Assembly (NCBI GenBank): GCA_048938445.1
Contig: JBHLME010000092.1
Location: forward strand, 1 to 10,126
Direction of reading: 5' to 3'
Length of the DNA stretch: 10,126 bases
Source: Promethearchaeota archaeon
Lineage (GTDB): Archaea; Asgardarchaeota; Lokiarchaeia; Sigyniarchaeales; SOKP01
In this document: positions 1-10,126 of the stretch, piece by piece
How the letters are laid out: every line of letters starts with the position of its first letter
Position numbering within the stretch: the stretch's first letter is position 1
Made by a program: the position numbers and the translations under genes
Notes under the pieces: generated by a model
Databases searched by the model: none
Seen by the model: the letters and a program-made list of their open reading frames with translations, nothing else
Told to the model about the DNA's origin: nothing

Positions 1-7
1 AAAATAT

Positions 8-80
8 AGCCCCGGGCGGGATTTGAACCCGCGACCTTTGCCTTACCAAGGCAATGCTATACCGGCTAAGCCACCGAGGC
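8..80 (-). tRNA. tRNA-Thr (anticodon GGT), intronless, CCA not encoded
   Basis: The reverse complement folds as a cloverleaf: acceptor GCCTCGG/CCGGGGC, anticodon arm TTGCC-TT GGT AA-GGCAA (anticodon at 45-47), T arm GCGGG-TTCAAAT-CCCGC, discriminator T. The TTCAAAT loop, U73 and missing CCA fit archaeal tRNA-Thr. Confidence 0.97.
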
Positions 81-194
81 CTACATGAAAATATTTCCAA
101 TAAACTTAATAATTATTTTTGAATTAAAAATTTTTGTACTTGATAATTTTGGAGTAGTATTATAGAGTTCAAATAAATTATTGAACCTATAGCA

Positions 195-209
195 CGAAAT
201 GTTTAAATA
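195..209 (+). promoter_or_regulatory. Probable archaeal BRE + TATA box for the 248..1642 gene
   Basis: CGAAAT (195-200) is followed by TTTAAATA (202-209), about 40 nt upstream of ATG 248. The AT-rich context lowers specificity. Confidence 0.55.
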
Positions 210-247
210 TTATGAGGTTGATAAATATATAGCTTAAAAGACCAAAT

Positions 248-1642
248 ATGATAAAAATGAATAATAAAAAATATTATATTTTATTGATTTTAGGCATTCT
301 TGTAACCCCTTTTTACATGAATTTTAATAACAGTAAATATAATGAGATTCAACCTTCAAAATTGACTAAATTATCGAATTCTTCTTCAGTACAATGGAAT
401 ACCACGTGGGGTGGAGCCGAAAATGATTGGGCAAGCGGATTAGTCTTAGATTCGTTGGGGAATGCCTATGTTGCGGGAAGTACGGCGAGTTTTGGTGGAA
501 CAGGATTTAACATGTCATTGGTAAAATTTAATATTACTGGTGGCGTTGAGTGGTATAAAATATGGGGTGGGAAACGTGTTGTTTTTGGTCGAGCAATGGC
601 CTCAGATATGCTTGGTAATATTTACGTTAGTGGAGAAATTAGTGGTTATGGTGCTGGTAGTTATGATATTTGCTTAGTGAAGTTCAATTCTACAGGTGAT
701 GTTGAATGGAATAGTACATGGGGAGGTATTAATGAAGATTTTGGAAGTGCGATTACTTTAGATTCATCAGGAAATATTTACGTTGCTGGAGCGACACTAA
801 ATTTTGGAGCAGTAAGTTCTGATATGTGTGTGGTTAAATTCAACTCCACAGGTGGTGTTGAGTGGAATAATACCTGGGGTGGAAATGATTGGGATACTGG
901 TAATGCAATCACCGTGGATTCTTTGGGAAATTCTTATGTTACAGGATACACAACTAATATCTTAACAGGAGATAAAGACATGAGTTTGGTTAAATTTAAT
1001 TCTACAGGCGGCGTTGAGTGGAACTACACGTGGGGGGGAAGTAATAATGATGGAGGATTTGGTATCATTTTAGATGTATCTGGCAACATTTACATTTCTG
1101 GTAGTACGGAGGATAATATTGTGGGAGACGCTGATATATGCTTGGTAAAGTTCAATTCTACAGGCGGCGTTGAGTGGAATAGTACTTGGGGAGGAGTTAA
1201 CAATGATTTTGGAAGTGGGATTATACAAGATCCTTTAGGAAATTTTTATGTTACTGGAACAACAGATAATTTTGGAGCGGTAAATACTGATATGTGTGTG
1301 ATCAAGTTCAATCCTATAGGTGTTGTTGAATGGAATTGTACATGGGGTGGAAATGCCTATGATGTGGGATATGCAATTAACTTAGATTCATTAGGAGATG
1401 TTTATGTTGCGGGAAATACAGAAAGTTTTGGTGTAGTTAATACTGATATTTTTTTGGTGAAGTTCAAGTTATCCTCAGGAGGAGAAGTAATCCCTGATAT
1501 CCCAAATCCAGATCCTATAATTAATGGAGGAGAAAAAATACCTGGATATGATTTCTTTATGCTTCTAGGTATAACCTTTGTGATTTCCACATTGATTTTA
1601 TGGAGACAGTGGAGATTAGGAAAAAAATCTCTCATTAATTAA
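248..1642 (+). CDS. Cell-surface 7-bladed beta-propeller (SBBP-type repeat) protein with Loki-CTERM-like sorting signal
   Basis: Signal peptide (KKYYILLILGILVTP), seven 52-aa repeats of the form VEWNxTWGG...D..GNxYVxG...D..LVKFNSTGG, a Pro-rich linker, then IPGY + hydrophobic helix + basic tail. The start could be ATG 257 instead. Confidence 0.92.
   Translation: MIKMNNKKYYILLILGILVTPFYMNFNNSKYNEIQPSKLTKLSNSSSVQWNTTWGGAENDWASGLVLDSLGNAYVAGSTASFGGTGFNMSLVKFNITGGVEWYKIWGGKRVVFGRAMASDMLGNIYVSGEISGYGAGSYDICLVKFNSTGDVEWNSTWGGINEDFGSAITLDSSGNIYVAGATLNFGAVSSDMCVVKFNSTGGVEWNNTWGGNDWDTGNAITVDSLGNSYVTGYTTNILTGDKDMSLVKFNSTGGVEWNYTWGGSNNDGGFGIILDVSGNIYISGSTEDNIVGDADICLVKFNSTGGVEWNSTWGGVNNDFGSGIIQDPLGNFYVTGTTDNFGAVNTDMCVIKFNPIGVVEWNCTWGGNAYDVGYAINLDSLGDVYVAGNTESFGVVNTDIFLVKFKLSSGGEVIPDIPNPDPIINGGEKIPGYDFFMLLGITFVISTLILWRQWRLGKKSLIN
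389..1480 (+). repeat. Seven tandem 156-bp (52-aa) coding repeats (propeller blades)
   Basis: The repeats align without gaps at protein level. Some nucleotide blocks recur 156 bp apart, e.g. AATTCTACAGGCGGCGTTGAGTGGAA near 998 and 1154. Confidence 0.92.
1538..1642 (+). other. Loki-CTERM-like C-terminal sorting/anchor signal
   Basis: IPGYDFFMLLGITFVISTLILWRQWRLGKK has the motif, TM helix and basic cluster layout of PGF-CTERM-related signals described for Lokiarchaeota. Confidence 0.8.
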
Positions 1643-1691
1643 TCGATAACATGTTTTAAATTGATTCTTCAGAGATTAAAATATAAAAAAA

Positions 1692-1709
1692 TTATTTTTT
1701 TCTTTTCTT
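1692..1709 (+). terminator. Possible oligo-T archaeal terminator
   Basis: TTATTTTTTTCTTTTCTT lies about 50 nt after the stop at 1642. Confidence 0.35.
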
Positions 1710-1828
1710 AATGCTTAATAATATAAAATTAAATTATTAAGCAAAAATATTGATTTCTCATGTACTCTATATGATATTTTTAAAAGAAAAAATACTATAA
1801 TAAAAAAGAATAATTATTAAAATTAAAA

Positions 1829-2407
1829 ATGCCATTTACCCCTTTTCATTATCCTGTCGCATGGGGGCTTTCGAAAATAGATAAAAGACTTAGTTTACCA
1901 GGTTTAATTGTAGGGTCTTTCATTCCTGATATTGAAGTGCCTATTCTAATATTTTTTTTTAATGGAATTCTTCCAGATCATTTCATAATGCATAGTTTGA
2001 TTGGTGCGCTGACTATAGGAACCCTCATTTCAACAATCCTTACCATTACTCTGTATCCTATAATTGCCTCTTTAATCTTTGGCATTGATAAAGGAAAAAT
2101 AAAAGAAACATATAAATTTAGTCCATTATTAGTGCTTTCATGCTTGCTAGGAAATCTATTCCATATTTTATTAGATCTCCTAATACACCCTTATAATCCC
2201 ATATTTTGGCCATTTGTAGATCCTTACCAAATTGTTGGTATATTAGTCCTTGTTTTTTCGTTAGGGGGTGATTTAACCTTTGGATTCTTGCTTGCCAGGT
2301 TTCTAGTATATATTATAATGAGTGTATTAGGAATCGCAATTTTAATAAAAAGTAGAAAAAATTTTTGGGAGTTGCTTTTAGTAGGAAAAATTGATTTTGA
2401 AAGTTAA
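1829..2407 (+). CDS. DUF4184-like / YdjM-like membrane-bound metal-dependent hydrolase
   Basis: N-terminal MPFTPFH, plus GSFIPDIE, HFIMHS and HILLD...H..P..WP motifs and several hydrophobic helices. Confidence 0.82.
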   Translation: MPFTPFHYPVAWGLSKIDKRLSLPGLIVGSFIPDIEVPILIFFFNGILPDHFIMHSLIGALTIGTLISTILTITLYPIIASLIFGIDKGKIKETYKFSPLLVLSCLLGNLFHILLDLLIHPYNPIFWPFVDPYQIVGILVLVFSLGGDLTFGFLLARFLVYIIMSVLGIAILIKSRKNFWELLLVGKIDFES

Positions 2408-2414
2408 AATTCTA

Positions 2415-2519
2415 TTAAAAAATTAAATTTATTATAAAAAGAAAGAGAAATCCCATGGTGAATAAACTTGCTATTCCTATGATAGCAATTATAATTTCAT
2501 ACCATAATTTAACATTCAT
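2415..2519 (-). CDS. 34-aa hydrophobic membrane micro-protein, copy A (not in ORF track): MNVKLWYEIIIAIIGIASLFTMGFLFLFIINLIF
   Basis: ATG at 2519, TAA at 2417-2415, purine-rich leader GAGGGCAAGGGAAA-ATG. It is 27/34 aa identical to copy B, with 13 synonymous codon differences. Confidence 0.85.
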   Translation of the reverse strand: MNVKLWYEIIIAIIGIASLFTMGFLFLFIINLIF

Positions 2520-2572
2520 TTTCCCTTGCCCTCCAATATAATAAAAGTAATTCAACATGTAATAAAAAAATT

Positions 2573-2641
2573 TCATTTTCGAGTTTTCTTTTTAACATTA
2601 AGGTAGGCATATGGCTATTTATTCTTGAATCATAAATATTA
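2573..2641 (-). pseudogene. Possible decayed remnant of the carbonic anhydrase 3' end
   Basis: Reads ...KKKTRK-TGA against ...KKKSQK-TGA in the intact gene, with the stop the same 53 nt upstream of the micro-protein ATG. Further upstream there is a net 2-nt indel and an in-frame stop. Confidence 0.45.
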
Positions 2642-2878
2642 TTAATTATACCCTAGAAAGTAATCTATTTAGAGTAAAAAAGAAACAATAATATTTTTTA
2701 TTTTTAACGTATACCTTTTGGTAATTATATAAATATTTCAATTATTTACCACATGAATTTAAATACCAAAGGATGTATTTTAATTCTTGCCAATAGAAGA
2801 CTAGTATCTATAATCTTATATATAGATAAAATAATAATTTAATTTATATAAAAAAACAATTTATTGAGGATTATTTTC

Positions 2879-4558
2879 ATGCGGCTAAGGACAATTTTAA
2901 TGATTATTTTAGTATTAATAAGTGTAATTATTCAGCTTTTTGGAATACCCTTTATAGGTTTTTTTCAATCAAGTCATGATCTGGAATTTAATTATATTTA
3001 TAATTGGAATTTAGTTGGAACTGGGGGTTATTACGATGGTTATTCTGAGACCTTTAAAGCAGAAGGAAACTACAAGATAGATTTTAATGGGAATATAGGT
3101 AATGTTTCTGGTACTGTATCATGGACTTGGACTGAAAATGATTATGGCAACGTAATATCTTCAATTGATAATTATATCTTCTCATATTCATTACTCAATG
3201 GATCCTACATTTGGGGTACAGATCAAGATGAGATTGACACATCGGGATTAAATGTCTGGTTTCACATTCCACAAGGATTATCCGCACAAAACAGAGGAAT
3301 TTTAGATGCGAATTATACTCTTAGTGGACCTTCAACCTTTTGGGCTGGGAAACTAGTACCATTTTTGAGTGTAAAATTGTATTCAATAGGAACTTTTGAG
3401 AGAGATGATGAATATGGACAGTTTACTGCTAATTATATTTCTGAATATCATTTTACTCCATGTGGTTACTTATTAGGAGAACTCTGGACAGAAACAGATC
3501 GTGGATTTGACAAGGATACTGGAAGGTGGTCAGAATTTAACATAAATTCTTATGTGTGCGTAACATCGGCTAATTACATTCGACCATTTGATTTTTTGAT
3601 ATATTTTCTTACTTATTGGTCATGGATATTCATTATTGGTGTTCTATTATTCATAGTATATGAAAAATATAGATGGAGAACTCGCTATGTTTCTGGAGAA
3701 CTTAAAGCATCAAAGGATATTGTTATTGAGAGAAATCTGCCAAAAAATGCACAATTATCTATTTCATCAAAATATGTGGAATGTATACCTGCTTACTTAA
3801 CTAATGCGAATTTACAAGATAAACTAATTATTTCAGCCTATTCTCAAGACAAAATCTTTGGAATTGGTTTTATAGAACAAAAGCGAAGAGTAGGAACTTT
3901 TTTTGGAACATATATAAATGAAATGGTCAAGTTTAGTAAAGTGAAATATGCTTTTTGTGAATATGAGAACGTTGGTAAATTAAAAATAATTGAAGAATAT
4001 AACATTTTTCAGATTAATGATATACAAAATCAAGAATATAACTATGATGCCACCCTCATTAGATCCGGGACAGATTTTTATTTACCAGCAATAATGAAAT
4101 TAATTGCTAATGAAGATTATGGTCGTAAACGTATAAAAAGGACAAAATGGGTCAAAGAAGCAGCAAAAAATGATATTATCGTAGTAGCAACTGCAAAAAG
4201 AGATGACGAGTGGATTAAAGATATATTATATGAGGTACATTCAAGAAATTACCCAAAACCAGAAGGACATCTTGATGAAATTCTTCTTGGCGTAGGATTT
4301 GCCACACCTGGAGATATAACCGGATGGCTTTATGGGTTATACGTTCATCCTGCATTTAGAAATTTTGGAATTGGGAGAAATTTAATGATGGCACGGTTAT
4401 CAATGTTAAAGGAAATTGGAGTTAATAACGTTATAACAGAAATTGCTGATTGGAATGGTCCTGCAAAAAGTATATACAAGCATATCAACGCAGAAATCAT
4501 TGGAAAAATGAAACTTTTTGGAAGAAAAATGCCTAAAGTAAAGGTGAGAAGATATTGA
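2879..4558 (+). CDS. Membrane-spanning protein: signal/TM, beta-rich ectodomain, TM, cytoplasmic GNAT acetyltransferase (probably tandem, first copy degenerate)
   Basis: Hydrophobic N-terminus; second TM FLIYFLTYWSWIFIIGVLLFIVY followed by EKYRWR; GNAT motif A LYVHPAFRNFGIGRNLM and motif B VITEIADWNGPAKSIYK. I prefer ATG 2879 over TTG 2864 because GAGGA (2866-2870) sits 8 nt upstream. Confidence 0.85.
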   Translation: MRLRTILMIILVLISVIIQLFGIPFIGFFQSSHDLEFNYIYNWNLVGTGGYYDGYSETFKAEGNYKIDFNGNIGNVSGTVSWTWTENDYGNVISSIDNYIFSYSLLNGSYIWGTDQDEIDTSGLNVWFHIPQGLSAQNRGILDANYTLSGPSTFWAGKLVPFLSVKLYSIGTFERDDEYGQFTANYISEYHFTPCGYLLGELWTETDRGFDKDTGRWSEFNINSYVCVTSANYIRPFDFLIYFLTYWSWIFIIGVLLFIVYEKYRWRTRYVSGELKASKDIVIERNLPKNAQLSISSKYVECIPAYLTNANLQDKLIISAYSQDKIFGIGFIEQKRRVGTFFGTYINEMVKFSKVKYAFCEYENVGKLKIIEEYNIFQINDIQNQEYNYDATLIRSGTDFYLPAIMKLIANEDYGRKRIKRTKWVKEAAKNDIIVVATAKRDDEWIKDILYEVHSRNYPKPEGHLDEILLGVGFATPGDITGWLYGLYVHPAFRNFGIGRNLMMARLSMLKEIGVNNVITEIADWNGPAKSIYKHINAEIIGKMKLFGRKMPKVKVRRY

Positions 4559-5751
4559 CTTCCGTTTCTTTAAATAAAAAGGATATATATACAGAGTATT
4601 TAATGAATTCGAGAAATATAGAATTATATGAATGTTTTTCCCAAGATATTCAAATTAATCCTCAATTTAAATCACTTAAACAATGGATAAAAGTATATTT
4701 AGGACCCGCAACAGCAGATCTACATGGTATTCATAATAATAAAGTAAATGCGATTAGAGACGAAAATCGAAATGCCATTATTCCAGATCGACAATATATC
4801 ATAAATAATAGAAATTTTTACCTATCTGTTAAAGGATGTGGTGCTTATGAAGACATGTTTAACGGCGGAGAATTAAATCCAGATAAAATTAAAAAAGCTT
4901 GTAGAGATCCTTTATTGATTCAAAAAATTAACAATTTATCTACTGGATTGGGCTTTATCATGGCAGAATCATGGTTAGGAGAAAGTCCGTATGGTGCTCA
5001 AGGATTCATGAATGGTTTTGATGAATTGAAGTTTTCAATGGTTGCTGAAAAAAATTCTATAAATGGTGCTTATATTTGTCCAGTTATTGGAATAGTAAAA
5101 CTCCCAAAAAAAATAGAAGAGGTCGCTAGAAAATTTTTTTATTTTAGAACATATCAAGAACATTTTTATCAAGTCATTCGACTTGTTCCTTCAAGAGCAA
5201 GATTATATTTTGAATCATCTCATACTATAGCTGATCCAATTAATTTATTTTCAATTTTTGGAATTAAAACTCCAGAAGAGGTAGAACTCTTTGAACTCAA
5301 TTTTATAAAAAGCGGAATAGCTTTATTATCCCTATTTTCGCGATCCGCTAAAATTATAGGTAATAAAATATCGGGAATTGTATATCAAGATGTATGGATG
5401 GATAAGGATTGTATTGTGGCTCCGGATGGAATTATTCACTTTGCTGATTTAGAAGGTTTAATTTGGAAAAAAACTACCTATGATAACTTTCCAAAAATCC
5501 AGAAGATCGAGTGGGAAAAATTAGTTTTTGAGTTTTTATTTGCTCTAGTTAAAATTGATGATTACAGGCATTATTTATTAGAAGATAAAATAGAATGGGA
5601 AAAACAACGTAAGGAACTCGCACTTTATGTTCAGCTTTCATTAGATAAAGATCTATATGCATATCCAAAAGAAAAAAATGGGGATTTAAAAATTATAATT
5701 GAAGGACCCGAACTTCCTTCTGTTGAAGTCATGTTCTTAGAAAAGGTGTGA
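4555..5751 (+). CDS. Atypical protein-kinase-fold protein, remote SelO/YdiU-like (putative AMPylase or kinase)
   Basis: TTG start overlaps the previous TGA, with SD GGTGA at 4543-4547. Motifs in order: LSVKGCG, DELKFS, IRLVPSRARLYFE, QDVWMDKD...ADLEG. These compare with SelO LKGAG, RE, RVAPSHLRFGHFE and HGVMNTDN...DYG. The ORF is secure but the family is inferred. Confidence 0.65.
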   Translation: MTSVSLNKKDIYTEYLMNSRNIELYECFSQDIQINPQFKSLKQWIKVYLGPATADLHGIHNNKVNAIRDENRNAIIPDRQYIINNRNFYLSVKGCGAYEDMFNGGELNPDKIKKACRDPLLIQKINNLSTGLGFIMAESWLGESPYGAQGFMNGFDELKFSMVAEKNSINGAYICPVIGIVKLPKKIEEVARKFFYFRTYQEHFYQVIRLVPSRARLYFESSHTIADPINLFSIFGIKTPEEVELFELNFIKSGIALLSLFSRSAKIIGNKISGIVYQDVWMDKDCIVAPDGIIHFADLEGLIWKKTTYDNFPKIQKIEWEKLVFEFLFALVKIDDYRHYLLEDKIEWEKQRKELALYVQLSLDKDLYAYPKEKNGDLKIIIEGPELPSVEVMFLEKV

Positions 5752-5757
5752 AATTAA

Positions 5758-7209
5758 ATGAAATGTGAAAGAGCGCTAAAAATCTTATTAAATGTGAAAA
5801 GTGGTTTTGATATTAAATTAAATCAGGAAGAAATTGAAGAATTAATTCAACTCGGATTTGTTTCTTTATTTGAATTGCCTGTTGGTAATATTGATTTAGA
5901 TGAGGAATTGAGTAATCTTAAAAATAAGTATGTTCAAACGTCTGCTGAATTGAGAAAGCTTAGTAAAGAGATCATAGGAATTAAAGGGGATTATAACCAA
6001 CTCTTTAAATACAAGAAATTATTTGGGTTGCTTTCACTAAGAAAAATAATAAAATTAAAATTCCATTTAAAAGAATTAAAAGGAAAATCATTAGAAAAAG
6101 AAGATCAATTATATTTCTTTAAAAATCGCATATTAAACTTAAATGCAGAAAAAAAAGCTTTTAAAAATGCCATAAAGGTAAATGGAAAGCGAATTTCTCT
6201 TACTCCCTTGGGGGATACCTATATTGATGAAATTAAGGCAAGGAAGCGATTTTTTTCAAAAGATTTGATTGAAATAGTAAATCTTATCGAAAAACTTGAT
6301 GATCAATATTCAAGACTTTTAAATCAATTGGAAAATTTAATGAAAAGGAATTATTTTACACCAATATGGGGTTTATTTTTCATGAATATGGGAATGGTGA
6401 AACTGGGGAGTATCATGAATAGTATTACAAATAAATATTATTGGCCTAAAGCTCAAAAAAAAATGATGAAATTATCCATCAGTCAGTTAATAGATCCAAC
6501 TACAATTAATACAAGGTCTGCTACCATAACTTTAAATGAATATTCAAGCCACAATCCTTCAGAAAAATTAAATAGAATGTTTTATAAGAATAATCTTAAT
6601 ACTTATCTTAAACCTTTCAATGAAATAATCGAATTCATGGGGAATTTATTTGTAGCTTCATTTCTTGATTTCGATCCAGCAGAAAATGAAACTAATAAAT
6701 TTCTTGAACAACTAGATAATCATTTAAAAAATCAAATAATTAAAACTAAGAATAAAAAATATACAACAGCATCGCTATTAATCTTAGCTTTATCTCCAAA
6801 TCCCGAGAAATATCAATATTTTAATACTTTATTTACTGAAGCTCCAAATGGAAAAGAAATTTTTTCAACAATCGCCACGTTATTTCCATGGGATGTAGAG
6901 GAAACTTGGATGGTTTTATTACGAGCGGAATCTGTCATATTAAGAGCTCAAAGTGCAAAATTTATTCCTGAACTACTCGTATATGCATTATTATTAACTA
7001 TGAACCCAAGTATCCTTAATATAGAAGAGAATCTTGAAATGGAGGACTTAAAAAGATGGAGGTATTTAATCATACCCACAATCCATTTATTGAATTATGG
7101 TTTAATGGAAGAAGGTCTTGAAACTTATGTTAAAAGCAGACCATTAGCTTATATCATTTCTCCAAGATATCGAGTATATTCTTCACTACATTATCACAGA
7201 ATTGGGTGA
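5758..7209 (+). CDS. Hypothetical protein: N-terminal winged-helix-like unit interrupted by a long coiled coil, then a helical C-terminal domain of unknown function
   Basis: 483-aa ORF starting 6 nt after the previous stop, SD GGTG at 5745-5748. EELIQLGFV (aa 27-35) and ISLTPLG (aa 146-152) bracket a heptad-rich K/E/L segment. Confidence 0.7.
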   Translation: MKCERALKILLNVKSGFDIKLNQEEIEELIQLGFVSLFELPVGNIDLDEELSNLKNKYVQTSAELRKLSKEIIGIKGDYNQLFKYKKLFGLLSLRKIIKLKFHLKELKGKSLEKEDQLYFFKNRILNLNAEKKAFKNAIKVNGKRISLTPLGDTYIDEIKARKRFFSKDLIEIVNLIEKLDDQYSRLLNQLENLMKRNYFTPIWGLFFMNMGMVKLGSIMNSITNKYYWPKAQKKMMKLSISQLIDPTTINTRSATITLNEYSSHNPSEKLNRMFYKNNLNTYLKPFNEIIEFMGNLFVASFLDFDPAENETNKFLEQLDNHLKNQIIKTKNKKYTTASLLILALSPNPEKYQYFNTLFTEAPNGKEIFSTIATLFPWDVEETWMVLLRAESVILRAQSAKFIPELLVYALLLTMNPSILNIEENLEMEDLKRWRYLIIPTIHLLNYGLMEEGLETYVKSRPLAYIISPRYRVYSSLHYHRIG

Positions 7210-7261
7210 ATTATTCTATAGAATAATATATTATCTGATGTAGAACATTATTTTAAATCAA

Positions 7262-7372
7262 TTAGATCAAGAATATAATGTTTATGATAAATAGAAAAAG
7301 AAAACCCATGGTAAACAATCCTGCCATTCCAATTATAGCCATTATGATTTCATACAATTGTTTAGCGTTCAT
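7262..7372 (-). CDS. 36-aa hydrophobic membrane micro-protein, copy B (not in ORF track): MNAKQLYEIIMAIIGMAGLFTMGFLFLFIINIIFLI
   Basis: ATG at 7372, TAA at 7264-7262, same GAGGGCAAGGGAAA leader as copy A, and 53 nt downstream of the carbonic anhydrase stop. Confidence 0.85.
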   Translation of the reverse strand: MNAKQLYEIIMAIIGMAGLFTMGFLFLFIINIIFLI

Positions 7373-7492
7373 TTTCCCTTGCCCTCTAATTTTATAAAAT
7401 CAACAAAGTTATGGATTAAAAAAAATCATTTTTGAGATTTCTTTTTTATTAACATGGGAACACGGATATTTATTTTTGGTATATAAATTTTA
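7268..7492. repeat. Diverged direct repeat, right copy (partner 2415..2641)
   Basis: Colinear similarity to the left copy across the peptide gene, its leader and the last codons of the carbonic anhydrase gene. Confidence 0.75.
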
Positions 7493-8292
7493 GGCATTTT
7501 TATTTTTGGTATTTCAATCTGAAAAAGATGAGCTGGAGCATAAATAGATTGATCAGGTAACCCCTTATAATTAAAATCTTCAGAAATGACAAGTTCTTTA
7601 GGTTCTTGTGTTAAATTATTATTTTTCAGTTCTATCGGTTGATCTTCATGTTGGTTTTTTATAGTATTTTCTATTTTAGATTCTATAAGATCATTAAATT
7701 CGATACTTTTTTTCTGTTCAATTAATCGAGGATATTGCTTATTGAAATCCTCTATGAAATCAAATCTTTCAATTATTCTACTTTCAAAAACATATCCGGT
7801 ATTAACATCATATAACATCCCCGCAATTTGAATTTTTGAAGAAATTTTTCTATTATTTCTTAATGAACGAACCTGATTCGAGATATTCACTAATTCATCT
7901 ATAAATGGTTTAAAAAAATCTCGTAATTCATGAGTAGTTAAATTCATTTCTAATTTTGTTTTAAGCTCAAGTAACTTTATTTTAGTCATTCCGCAGTCCA
8001 AGTGTCCTAATACAATGAGATTTTTAACATTAAATTCACTAATTGCAATAAAAATAGATCTTAACATATCTCGCGCTATTACATTTCCAGCATTTCTTAA
8101 AATGAAGACATCACCGGGTTCTAATTGAAATATTCTGTGAACATCAATTCGTGGATCCATGCATGTTAGAATTAGTAGTGGATATTTAAGGATTATTTTT
8201 TCATTTTTAAGAGTTTCCAATCCATGCTGTAATTTCCGTTGAAATTTCTTATTTCCCTCCAATAATATCTTTTCAATTTCTTCTATCTGCAT
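7426..8292 (-). CDS. Beta-class carbonic anhydrase family protein with C-terminal extension
   Basis: Zn-binding motifs LTCMDPR and GHLDCG, plus RNAGN and GMLYDVNTG. About 110 extra C-terminal residues end in PKI repeats. Confidence 0.92.
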   Translation of the reverse strand: MQIEEIEKILLEGNKKFQRKLQHGLETLKNEKIILKYPLLILTCMDPRIDVHRIFQLEPGDVFILRNAGNVIARDMLRSIFIAISEFNVKNLIVLGHLDCGMTKIKLLELKTKLEMNLTTHELRDFFKPFIDELVNISNQVRSLRNNRKISSKIQIAGMLYDVNTGYVFESRIIERFDFIEDFNKQYPRLIEQKKSIEFNDLIESKIENTIKNQHEDQPIELKNNNLTQEPKELVISEDFNYKGLPDQSIYAPAHLFQIEIPKIKMPKIYIPKINIRVPMLIKKKSQK

Positions 8293-8373
8293 TTTCCTTG
8301 CTATTTTCCATTTTTATAAGAGTTTATTATCTAATATTTATAAAAAAATAATGTTAAAAAAAAATAGATCTTA

Positions 8374-9552
8374 TCATTTTACTTTATTAATTAGTTCCTT
8401 CAATTTTTTAGGATTTCCATTTCCGAAGAAGTTTTTTATCTGATCAGAATATTCAGGTAATAATTGTAGGAATGGCAATATTGCTTTTGATAGTGAATTA
8501 AATGCATTTTCACCATCTCCCATAATGAACATCTTTTCTGGCTTCATATTTTTGAATATTTCTGGTAAGATATTAGTTAATTGAACCGCTAAAAATCTTT
8601 CATCAGCAGCACTCATGGATTCAACTTGGTTTAAAAAACCTTCAGCTTGAGCTACCATTTGTTGCCTAATACTTTCCGCTTCTCCTTCAGCTTGAGCTAC
8701 TAAAGTCTTTTTGATCTTTTGAGCTTCAGCTTCAGCTTCAATAACTTTCTTTTGTCGCTCACCATCAGCCTCAATTTTCTTACGTTCACGTTCTAAATCA
8801 GCAACAGCAATTTCTTTTTGTACTCTTTGAGTCTCGATTTGCCTGAAAACGTTCTGTTCTTCAATTCCAACTTCATTCTGTACTTCTAATTCTCGTAACC
8901 GTGATTCTCTCTCCGCAGTAGCCATCGAAATTCGCGCCTTTCTGGCTTCCTCCGCTTTTTTAGTAGCTTCCATGTTTTCTTTTAATTTAGGCTCTAAAAT
9001 GATTACTTCTCTGATTTCAATTGATTCTATAACTATACCCCAATCAGATGTTAATTCATGTAATTCCTTGCTAATACCCTTGATAATATCCCTGCGTTCT
9101 CGAATGATTTTTTCGAGCTCCATGTTAGCACAGGTGGTCCTAATAATTGCTTCTGCAGCATTTTTTAATATTTTTTCTACATAATTGTCATTATTTGTAC
9201 TCCAAGATACAGCACTAAATGCTTTCTCAGGATCAATTACTTTCCAGATTAACATGCCTGTAATGGAGATATTCTGATATTCTTTAGAAACCACTTGTTC
9301 ATGAGCTTCGAGTATTGTCTGGATACTGGTTGTCGGTATCACGAGATATTCATCTATTAAGGGTAATAACCAGAGGCTACCTCCAAGACCCGCATGTTTA
9401 ACCTTTCCATTACGCAAATGTATTACAAATTGGTTTGTTTTGAACTTTCTATATCGCGTAGCCATAAAAATGATAAATAGTAATACTACAATGACTATCG
9501 CTACTACGGCACTAACTATTAATATCTGGATATCTGGAACCATTTGGAACAT
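8374..9552 (-). CDS. SPFH (band 7)/flotillin-like membrane protein
   Basis: N-terminal TM, SPFH core (IRTTCANMELEKII..R, WGIVIESIEIREV), then an Ala/Glu-rich coiled coil (IEAEAEA, AQAEGEAE). It lies downstream of an NfeD-like gene, and a purine-rich GAGG leader occupies 9553-9584. Confidence 0.92.
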   Translation of the reverse strand: MFQMVPDIQILIVSAVVAIVIVVLLFIIFMATRYRKFKTNQFVIHLRNGKVKHAGLGGSLWLLPLIDEYLVIPTTSIQTILEAHEQVVSKEYQNISITGMLIWKVIDPEKAFSAVSWSTNNDNYVEKILKNAAEAIIRTTCANMELEKIIRERRDIIKGISKELHELTSDWGIVIESIEIREVIILEPKLKENMEATKKAEEARKARISMATAERESRLRELEVQNEVGIEEQNVFRQIETQRVQKEIAVADLERERKKIEADGERQKKVIEAEAEAQKIKKTLVAQAEGEAESIRQQMVAQAEGFLNQVESMSAADERFLAVQLTNILPEIFKNMKPEKMFIMGDGENAFNSLSKAILPFLQLLPEYSDQIKNFFGNGNPKKLKELINKVK

Positions 9553-9584
9553 TTTTTTCTCTTTCCTCTTTTTTTTTAAATTTT

Positions 9585-10126
9585 TTATCTTCTAATTAAT
9601 TTTTTATTATTATCTACTAATAGATAACCTTGACGGACATCACAAATGTAAACTCTCGTTCCTTCATCAAATTTCGATTCTGGATTTAAAGGTTTTACAT
9701 GTAATTTTTCAAATTTTAATGGAGTATCAGAACTCACTTTTATTACGCCTCCTCTTTCATCTACATCTAAAATCACTTCTGCTTCCTTCCCTATAAGATT
9801 TTTTGTTGAGGATATTTGATAAAATCTTGATTTCGCCATTTTTCGCCATCCTATAGAGATCAACTTTGTAATTAAGAAAGTTATTCCGGGTGTAATAGGG
9901 AATGCTAAAAATCTTATGGATTCAAAAGTGATGTAACTTGAAATCATTCCTGTTATACCGAAAACTAAGAGAGAAGTAGAAAATAATAACATAAAGGGAG
10001 CAGGAGTTGAATAATCTAAGACATTTGAATCTCCCATTTGACTTTGGCTGTCTATGTGATCGATATGTCCAAAATCTTTATCTAGGTGATCGACATGTCC
10101 AAAATCTTTATCTAGGTGATCGACAT
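9585..10126 (-). CDS. NfeD-like (YqiJ-type) SPFH partner protein, 5'-truncated by the window edge
   Basis: Two TM helices, then an OB-fold-like C-terminus (LIGKEAEV...GGVIKV...GTRVYICDV.QGYLLV). The frame stays open upstream of ATG 10037 to the window end, reading VDHLDKDFGHVDHLDKDFGHIDHIDSQSQ-M. Confidence 0.85.
   Translation of the reverse strand, partial: VDHLDKDFGHVDHLDKDFGHIDHIDSQSQMGDSNVLDYSTPAPFMLLFSTSLLVFGITGMISSYITFESIRFLAFPITPGITFLITKLISIGWRKMAKSRFYQISSTKNLIGKEAEVILDVDERGGVIKVSSDTPLKFEKLHVKPLNPESKFDEGTRVYICDVRQGYLLVDNNKKLIRR
10056..10126. repeat. 30-bp coding tandem repeat (about 2.4 copies visible) encoding HVDHLDKDFG
   Basis: GTGATCGA(T/C)ATGTCCAAAATCTTTATCTAG at 10056-10085 and 10086-10115 (1 mismatch), with a partial third copy at 10116-10126. 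Confidence 0.93.

Follow-up and report, generated by a model that had tools for sequence, protein, structure and literature searches.

A lineage-restricted family of predicted single-helix membrane micro-proteins in Asgard archaea, with two paralogous genes flanking a three-gene cassette

Here we describe a family of membrane micro-proteins, 34-36 residues long, that is represented by two paralogous minus-strand genes in a 10,126-nucleotide stretch of DNA from a Promethearchaeota archaeon (NCBI GenBank assembly GCA_048938445.1, contig JBHLME010000092.1, positions 1 to 10,126; this whole stretch, of 30% G+C, is the window throughout, and its source genome is called G000). As read from the sequences, each family member would consist of essentially one transmembrane (TM) helix, and the family is confined to three genera of a single Asgard-type archaeal family. 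We are highly confident that the two genes, copy A (2415..2519) and copy B (7262..7372), are functional and protein-coding. The broader account, in which they belong to a functional, lineage-restricted single-helix family, copy A is a duplicate of copy B, and the product serves as an accessory membrane subunit or modulator, seems to us somewhat better than an even prospect. The family is new but of a well-known gene kind, and we found no curated family, solved structure or literature that covers it.

Results

Two paralogous genes with a signature of purifying selection

Copy A (minus strand, 34 aa) and copy B (minus strand, 36 aa) both appear in the open reading frame (ORF) list of the window and are both recovered by the family profile, copy B as its best match (E 1.3e-17) and copy A at E 3.4e-16; a longer in-frame form of copy A, 53 aa from an upstream ATG, is also present. 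Aligned without gaps over 34 codons, the two copies share 27 of 34 residues and differ at 23 of 102 bases, with 13 synonymous and 7 non-synonymous codon differences; the residue and codon counts equal those given in the original prediction made on this DNA, whose coordinates are likewise correct. The replacements are V/A, L/Q, W/L, I/M, I/M, S/G and L/I; the five that had been called conservative (V/A, I/M twice, S/G and L/I) are indeed so, the other two (L/Q and W/L) are not, and the invariant core that had been pointed out is a run of 13 residues, positions 19-31, that is the same in A and B. Base differences fall 3/3/17 across codon positions 1/2/3. A dN/dS-type comparison, which had been proposed as a check, gives pS = 0.76 (15.0 of 19.7 sites) against pN = 0.10 (8.0 of 82.3 sites; Nei-Gojobori, Fisher p = 1.4e-8). 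The ORF DNA is identical at 79 of 102 positions (77%), far above the random ungapped identity of 53-nt segments in the window (0.29 +/- 0.07), and because synonymous sites are near saturation, the duplication is not recent.

A third paralog, copy C, is found on another contig of the same genome (G000:C176:42795-42896, 34 aa, 50% identical to B), and a six-frame hidden Markov model scan of the entire G000 genome returned exactly three family copies. With a profile of these three sequences, 12 more intact copies were recovered among 60 related genomes, every one starting at the homologous ATG. A 15-sequence alignment (profile A4) was then searched in the 135 genomes of GTDB family f1, which spans 13 genera including the source genus, g1; it gave 83 matches in 74 genomes, none with an internal stop. 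This homolog search in Asgard genomes had also been suggested beforehand, together with the warning that frameshifts or stops in homologs, or conservation of an RNA structure, would speak against the genes. The matches are restricted to g1 (4/5 genomes), g11 (41/54) and g2 (28/42), with none in the 33 genomes of the other ten f1 genera, and elsewhere in the same class just one of 26 genomes matched, partially and inside a 384-aa frame. Most g11 and g2 genomes hold a single copy, and genus g1 has several per genome.

The coding signature extends across the family. Coding statistics were computed on the 36 of the 83 places with DNA (35 unique sequences). All 36 start with ATG in one alignment column, and lengths are nearly fixed at 34 aa (27 loci), 35 aa (8) or 36 aa (1). 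Mean entropy at codon positions 1/2/3 is 1.08/0.44/1.33 bits; a conserved second position is what hydrophobic codons should show. Of the five alternative frames, four are closed throughout (35/35 unique sequences) and one in 20/35. Among the 595 non-independent pairs, non-synonymous divergence is below synonymous divergence (pN < pS) 589 times; the median omega is 0.36 over 411 unsaturated pairs, with ortholog pairs at 0.09-0.43. When 12 of the 36 sequences, each taken as the ORF with 40 nt of upstream DNA, were folded jointly, RNAalifold predicted no base pairs, and the only Rfam match in the window is a tRNA (tRNA-Thr at 7-81). Thus the claim that A and B are real genes under purifying selection is borne out by the third paralog, the 83 of 83 uninterrupted matches, the fixed start and length, the three-periodic variability and the lack of a shared RNA structure in the homologs folded.

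The start signals of the G000 genes point the same way. Among 2650 long ORFs of this genome, Shine-Dalgarno (SD)-like 5-mers ahead of the first ATG cluster clearly at 5-13 nt from it, although just 382 of the ORFs (14%) have one anywhere within 40 nt upstream. All three G000 copies carry GGAGG, GAGGG or GGTGA ending 9-13 nt before the ATG. Specifically, a G-rich SD-like block stands at 7373..7387 (minus strand) upstream of copy B, where GAGGG ends 9 nt before the ATG, and at 2520..2534 (minus strand) upstream of copy A, where GGAGG and GAGGG end 10 and 9 nt before it. We infer that this block is a ribosome-binding signal and that each gene would be translated from its own ATG.

Records of the family and searches for relatives

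A HMMER search of 1.84 billion representative proteins gave 13 matches at E <= 1e-3, all of 34-67 aa with the family sequence at the C-terminal end; the longer ones are upstream start calls, and no fused or longer form of the family was found in that set. Gene callers therefore already predict family members in other records, as these 13 representative proteins attest. Curated resources gave little else. No Pfam or NCBIfam family matched the three G000 paralogs at E <= 0.01, and relaxing Pfam to E <= 10 brought up three families, each matching one of 15 members, with nothing consistent among them. PADLOC returned no match for the family, a PDB profile search no chain at E <= 10, and tblastn against phage and plasmid collections no match. 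The best PHROGs hit, phrog_33949 (unknown function), was found with 3 of 15 members at a best E of 0.004, below the family threshold, and the best ESM Atlas score was 0.85 against a lead level of 0.9, in clusters that are unnamed. The family is likewise not described in the consulted portions of the literature on small proteins of Asgard archaea and Hodarchaeales and on small membrane proteins in NfeD/SPFH operons.

Copy A within a duplicated segment

The similarity of A and B, which the original prediction had placed in the coding sequences, reaches ~130 nt upstream of the start codons and ends at the stop codon, in one register throughout (offset 4853), so that the two are direct repeats 4853 bp apart. 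In the 15 nt before the ATG, 14 of 15 bases are equal, and the 53-nt spacer upstream of the ATG is identical at 35 of 53 positions with no gaps. The part of this spacer that lies beyond the SD-like block upstream of A (2535..2572, minus strand), which includes a T-run/TATA-like stretch, corresponds to 7388..7425, between copy B and the stop codon of the carbonic-anhydrase (CA) gene that precedes it; the A/B spacer also aligns with the orthologous spacers of genomes G002 and G004. Further out, the last ~75 nt of the CA tail (7426..7500) align with the upstream region of A at ~70% identity with one 2-nt indel, and the segment at 2573..2650 (minus strand) is a non-coding relic of the CA gene 3' end, duplicated along with copy A. 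After the stop codons, A/B identity is 15/40, which equals background, and further upstream of the CA tail it also falls to background. Copy A is therefore a G000-specific duplicate of the B-type gene that arose within a ~235-bp segment comprising CA tail, spacer and ORF. Its origin could lie in an integration via a homologous patch or in a segmental duplication followed by divergence.

Polarising the A/B differences with the G002 and G004 orthologs (by parsimony, on small numbers) assigns 6 synonymous and 6 non-synonymous changes to the A branch and 2 synonymous and 3 non-synonymous changes to the B branch; 6 further changes are ambiguous, all of them synonymous. Copy A is still constrained, because 6 of its 12 changes are non-synonymous against ~81% expected if it were neutral (one-sided binomial p = 0.016).

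Four sets of DNA contigs were aligned to the window. Contigs of the same strain, obtained in a second study, span copy B (6696-7472 and 7215-7573) and, at 2176-2470, the portion of copy A between ORF base 50 and its stop codon, in each case with 0-1 differences. Variants of run X8 within copy B, at 7313 and 7316, are both third-position synonymous when the codons are read. In the same run, a single contig, from a diverged relative, links position 7400 to 2548, a step back of 4853, with 47 letters on the shorter side. It may reflect the 4853-bp unit in circular or tandem form, a relative with just one copy, or misalignment inside the repeat.

A single predicted transmembrane helix

AlphaFold2 (AF2), run on copy B with the 15-row alignment, predicts a single uninterrupted helix over residues 3-35 with a pLDDT of 94.9. 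Positions 1-8 form a short polar head with K at position 4 in 26/35 sequences, Y7 in 31/35 and E8 in 33/35, and I9 (31/35) opens the hydrophobic stretch of positions 9-34. A charged residue after position 9 occurs in just 2/35 cores, and there is no C-terminal tail; most of the proteins end in hydrophobic residues, a few 35-aa forms in R or Q. Usually the peptide contains one Lys or Arg, located close to its N-terminus. Among the 35 unique sequences, M1, G15, L19 and L27 are invariant, and small residues occupy positions 12, 15, 17, 18, 21 and 23 in at least 91% of sequences. The small-residue-rich mid-helix together with the invariant G15, L19 and L27 suggests tight helix packing. Under the positive-inside rule, the N-terminus with its short K-x-x-Y-E head is probably cytoplasmic.

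Genomic neighbourhoods

Copy B stands in a minus-strand gene row. Directly upstream of it lies a beta-carbonic-anhydrase-like gene (7426..8292, minus strand; Pfam Pro_CA, E 1.5e-22), preceded in the row by an SPFH/Band 7 (flotillin-like) gene (8374..9552, minus strand; Pfam Band_7, E 1.1e-29) and by a gene for a putative NfeD-like membrane protein (9585..10126, minus strand), which is cut by the contig end and whose Pfam NfeD match is weak (E 0.15, 12.7 bits, below cut-off). Neighbourhoods elsewhere were compared by running 63 of 105 ORFs from 13 homologous loci against Pfam and by clustering 25 further loci with 1.5-kb flanks. Two old paralog lines are discernible in g1: a B-type, after the SPFH and CA genes, and a C-type, near a RagA-like GTPase gene. 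The B-type gene follows SPFH-CA on the same strand, ~50 nt past the CA stop, in G000, G002 and G004. C-type genes have a Gtr1/RagA-like GTPase gene and a gene for a ~400-aa protein close by at all four loci (G000, G002, G003 and G005), with Gtr1/RagA- and Arf-family GTPase genes beside copy C itself. A rough FastTree of 31 of the 36 peptides (leaving out the near-duplicates L011, L061, L065, L066 and L067) places B-type sequences with g2 and C-type with g11, a grouping that, on just 34 columns, is a hint. In g11, an EamA gene lies upstream in 6/18 loci and a 125-aa four-TM gene downstream in 10/18; in g2, a CdhD gene lies upstream in 4/7 loci.

In g11 and g2, the SPFH row is found without the micro-protein gene. 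SPFH orthologs, 75-78% identical, are apart from it in five of five g11/g2 genomes (G030, G036, G079, G018 and G025), on another contig or, in G079, 1.3 Mb away; in G079, a CA ortholog (38% identical, with the same C-terminal tail) comes next to SPFH in the row, and no family member comes after it. Co-location in NfeD/SPFH operons is thus seen for g1 B-type genes only, and the suggestion of the original prediction that the peptide regulates an SPFH/NfeD complex loses its footing outside one paralog line of one genus, as the genes are apart in g11 and g2. A complex prediction that combined copy B with the NfeD-like protein and with residues 1-230 of SPFH scored 0.00 in two runs with unfolded controls, and speaks neither for nor against binding.

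Several features of these neighbours are recorded for their own sake. The CA-like protein keeps the CxDxR and HxxC motifs, as read from the translation, and carries a ~140-aa C-terminal extension ending in repeated PKI-type motifs that is kept in G079 (L095:351-1076); its nearest titled records, at 43-44% identity, are metagenome-assembled genomes labelled Promethearchaeota and Candidatus Hodarchaeota, and the gene sits within the SPFH row in genera g1 and g11. These records and the GTPase genes beside copy C support an Asgard affiliation of the genome. NfeD-like orthologs (L037:2562-3422 and L038:5503-6231) are longer at the N-terminus, with a TM segment followed by a long Asp/His-rich repeat (VDHVDH-type), after which comes a C-terminal part with TM and beta-rich character. 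In G005 (L038, G005:C103, 871..4174), a 280-aa and a 235-aa gene, neither with a Pfam match, are inserted between CA and the B-type gene, and the region after the CA gene therefore took up insertions at least twice in g1. The four-TM protein downstream in 10/18 g11 loci (L042:6616-6993 and nine others) has 122-138 aa and no Pfam family. A 106-aa TM neighbour of copy C was considered as a counterpart of the 125-aa protein and set aside, at E 0.079 and with the gene missing at the G003 and G005 C-type loci.

On the other side of the window lie an SBBP beta-propeller protein gene (248..1642, plus strand; Pfam) and a gene for a DUF4184/YdjM-like membrane protein (1829..2407; Pfam). The SBBP gene contains a 156-nt repeat in five copies, its product has a TM segment at the C-terminus, and a paralog stands beside copy C on C176 (L047:6532-7914). 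At the window's edge, the Rfam tRNA-Thr (GGT; 7..81, minus strand) draws a pile-up of metagenome contigs, at a depth of 40-75 vs 1-10 elsewhere, as expected for a conserved gene.

The cassette between the repeats

Between the A and B direct repeats lies a plus-strand three-gene cassette (2864..7209; ORF list and Pfam). It encodes a 564-aa TM protein with a C-terminal GNAT domain (2864..4558, plus strand; Pfam), a 398-aa protein (4555..5751, plus strand) and a 483-aa protein (5758..7209, plus strand). The latter two have no Pfam match and belong to no known family, nor do they have a PADLOC match or anything meaningful in PDB; kinship of the 398-aa protein with the ~400-aa protein beside copy C was considered and rejected, the two being unrelated (E 7.4). 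The gene order recurs in two g2 genomes, G018 and G006, with BLASTP identities of 41-65% over segments that vary in coverage, and in two g14 genomes, G044 and G037, with 25-51%. Queried with the 398-aa protein, the cassette was found in none of the five other g1 genomes (68-94% complete). No family member was found within the flanks fetched for the G018, G006, G044 and G037 cassettes (best E 0.14), and three of these four loci checked have no flanking direct repeats. The cassette thus reads as accessory in G000 and as working elsewhere without the micro-protein, with the A/B repeat apparently particular to the G000 insertion.

Discussion

A likely mode of action within the membrane

The features described above lead us to a mode of action that would play out within the membrane. 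The product would insert as a single helix with its head in the cytoplasm, and since there is no soluble domain, action inside the bilayer is most likely; the small-residue-rich middle (positions 12, 15, 17, 18, 21 and 23) would pack against other TM helices. We think it quite possible, at somewhat less than even odds, that some larger membrane protein has the micro-protein as its small accessory subunit or modulator, on the model of KdpF, CydX, CioY and AcrZ, and that this partner is probably not encoded next door. The eukaryotic micro-proteins sarcolipin, phospholamban and OST4, of ~30-50 aa and one TM helix, act solely via intramembrane contacts with a pump or enzyme complex; the family resembles them in its tiny size and single TM helix, and differs in that a PDB profile search, which covers chains of this sort, gave no matches and that no link to P-type ATPases or an oligosaccharyltransferase is seen. 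KdpF (29 aa), CydX (37 aa), CioY (34 aa) and AcrZ (49 aa) are, in the consulted part of a published account, small bacterial subunits that pack against a large membrane complex (PMC12648545). The present family is of equal size, with one TM helix and next to no soluble part, and is likewise encoded by small ORFs that trail larger genes. Unlike these subunits, it is archaeal and limited to three genera, shows no sequence relationship to them in Pfam, NCBIfam or PDB, and is not encoded beside kdp, cyd or RND-pump genes; as for CydX or CioY in particular, the genes around it (CA, RagA-like GTPase, EamA and CdhD) include none for an oxidase, and Pfam shows no similarity.

A number of observations weigh against this account. 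The family was not detected in 13 of 54 g11 and 14 of 42 g2 genomes, including the 99%-complete G015, and is therefore dispensable there or diverged past detection. Searching through the neighbours yielded no partner, no neighbour is common to all lineages and neighbourhoods vary by genus; the 125-aa four-TM protein, tried as a partner, was rejected, as it is present in 95/135 genomes and 12/13 genera and is located elsewhere in G000 and g2. The small residues lie all round the helix and define no single face (helical moment at 100 degrees, 0.018). With 12 polarised changes to the 5 of copy B, copy A has evolved faster, and one metagenome contig (run X3) has a 2-nt deletion at 2425, near the 3' end of A, which together suggest that constraint on copy A is relaxed. 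Translation is here deduced from sequence, no RNA run being listed with this DNA. A strict SD 5-mer at 5-13 nt spacing is present at just 10 of 36 loci; in g11 and g2, related but imperfect G-rich motifs (AGGCGAAAA and AGGGGGAAA) take its place at much the same spacing. AT-rich TATA-like stretches lie close by, and the mRNA may instead be leaderless.

Competing explanations

The main rival, which we judge unlikely, is that the family encodes a type I-toxin-like or otherwise membrane-perturbing peptide, a hydrophobic helix that is normally kept at low expression, perhaps through an antisense RNA, and that once made would associate with itself and thereby depolarise or permeabilise the membrane. 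Such toxins (Hok, Ldr, TisB, Fst and Ibs among them) resemble the family in being shorter than 60 aa and hydrophobic, with one TM helix, sometimes in multiple copies and of narrow range. Indeed, the 34-36 aa at 36 of 36 loci, the single hydrophobic helix (positions 9-34, AF2), the several copies per g1 genome, the narrow taxonomic range, the variable positions at the ends of unrelated genes, with one copy bordering an accessory cassette, and a small-residue-rich helix that could support oligomerisation all suit this reading. According to the consulted part of a review, membrane-associated type I toxins have < 60 residues, are hydrophobic with a single alpha-helical TM domain and generally carry their cationic residues C-terminally, with IbsC, ShoB and DinQ named as exceptions (PMC8309996). 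That C-terminal charge is lacking here, as charge after position 9 is found in 2/35 sequences and the protein ends within its hydrophobic stretch, and unlike the named toxins the family is single-copy in most genomes, including those of g11 and g2, and archaeal. The original prediction of a type I toxin-like peptide therefore fits for size and helix and fails for the usual tail. Furthermore, the g1 genes have a strong, well-spaced SD-like signal, the antisense frame is closed in 20/35 sequences, no conserved mRNA structure was found to sequester the start, and there was no PADLOC match. A preprint has reportedly dealt with spRNA/asRNA pairs in Methanosarcina mazei. A conserved non-coding RNA or DNA element in place of a protein has in its favour bare sequence conservation and nothing more; with no pair predicted by RNAalifold on 12 homologs, an Rfam tRNA alone in the window, three-periodic variability with the second codon position most conserved, and start, stop and length fixed, it is refuted as far as computation allows, and we hold it to be exceedingly improbable.

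The remaining alternatives turn on the individual copies and what surrounds them. The B-type paralogs (B and its duplicate A) would, in one of them, be dedicated membrane partners of the NfeD-like/SPFH/CA gene set; this agrees with the place of the B-type gene after SPFH and CA on the same strand in G000, G002 and G004 and with a spacer conserved across genomes, but the linkage is seen in one genus alone, five g11/g2 genomes have SPFH elsewhere, copy A stays intact with a CA-tail relic as its only trace of the operon, and a T-run directly past the CA stop could, from its sequence, terminate the operon transcript. We consider it improbable. About equally doubtful is the view of copy A as a decaying by-product of duplication whose frame stayed open by chance, leaving B (and C) alone functional. 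The 12 changes on its branch against 5 on B, 6 of them non-synonymous, the lost upstream gene and the 2-nt deletion at 2425 in one X3 contig would fit such decay; against it, copy A preserves an open frame, its ATG, 14 of 15 bases of the SD-like block and the family's length of 34 aa, M1, Y7, E8, I9, G15, L19 and L27 are all retained, and non-synonymous changes are under-represented (6/12 against 81% expected, p = 0.016). Least credible among these is that the peptide is a ligand, substrate or immunity factor of the GNAT cassette, or that the repeats are no genes at all but serve a mobile cassette as attachment sites. The ~235-bp direct repeats do bracket the cassette, 4853 bp apart, the cassette is accessory (in none of five other g1 genomes) and patchy elsewhere, and one X8 contig joins 7400 back to 2548. 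Yet that joint, with 47 letters on its shorter side, lies within an 80%-identical repeat and may be an alignment artefact, Pfam and PADLOC scans found no integrase-like domain in the cassette, 73 other genomes have the family without such a bracket, cassette-bearing g14 lacks the family save for one partial match, and the cassette is intact in G018, G006, G044 and G037 with no nearby family member (best E 0.14) and no flanking direct repeats at the loci checked. The reading of the original prediction that made the peptide a ligand or substrate of the enclosed GNAT operon is thereby largely refuted, and we assign the whole cassette-linked explanation a very low probability.

Significance

Annotation of archaeal genomes routinely overlooks very small membrane proteins, and hardly any of those in Asgard archaea have been studied. 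The gain here is modest, as lineage-restricted single-helix micro-proteins without known function are common, and a partner would raise its interest; the case does supply exact gene models, a 15-sequence seed alignment, a defined range of three genera and a clear selection signature for annotation pipelines. The duplication that brackets the cassette is, in turn, a small, datable example of gene cassettes entering such genomes. A more far-reaching reading, which we regard as a long shot, is that the micro-protein might be a lineage-specific intramembrane subunit or regulator of a conserved Asgard membrane machine, and that in g1 a duplicated line of the family was recruited to the SPFH/NfeD-like/CA module, with the ~235-bp segment perhaps serving as a homology patch for the entry of the GNAT cassette. 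If such recruitment were true, the B-type protein would be the first micro-protein partner of an archaeal membrane-microdomain scaffold.

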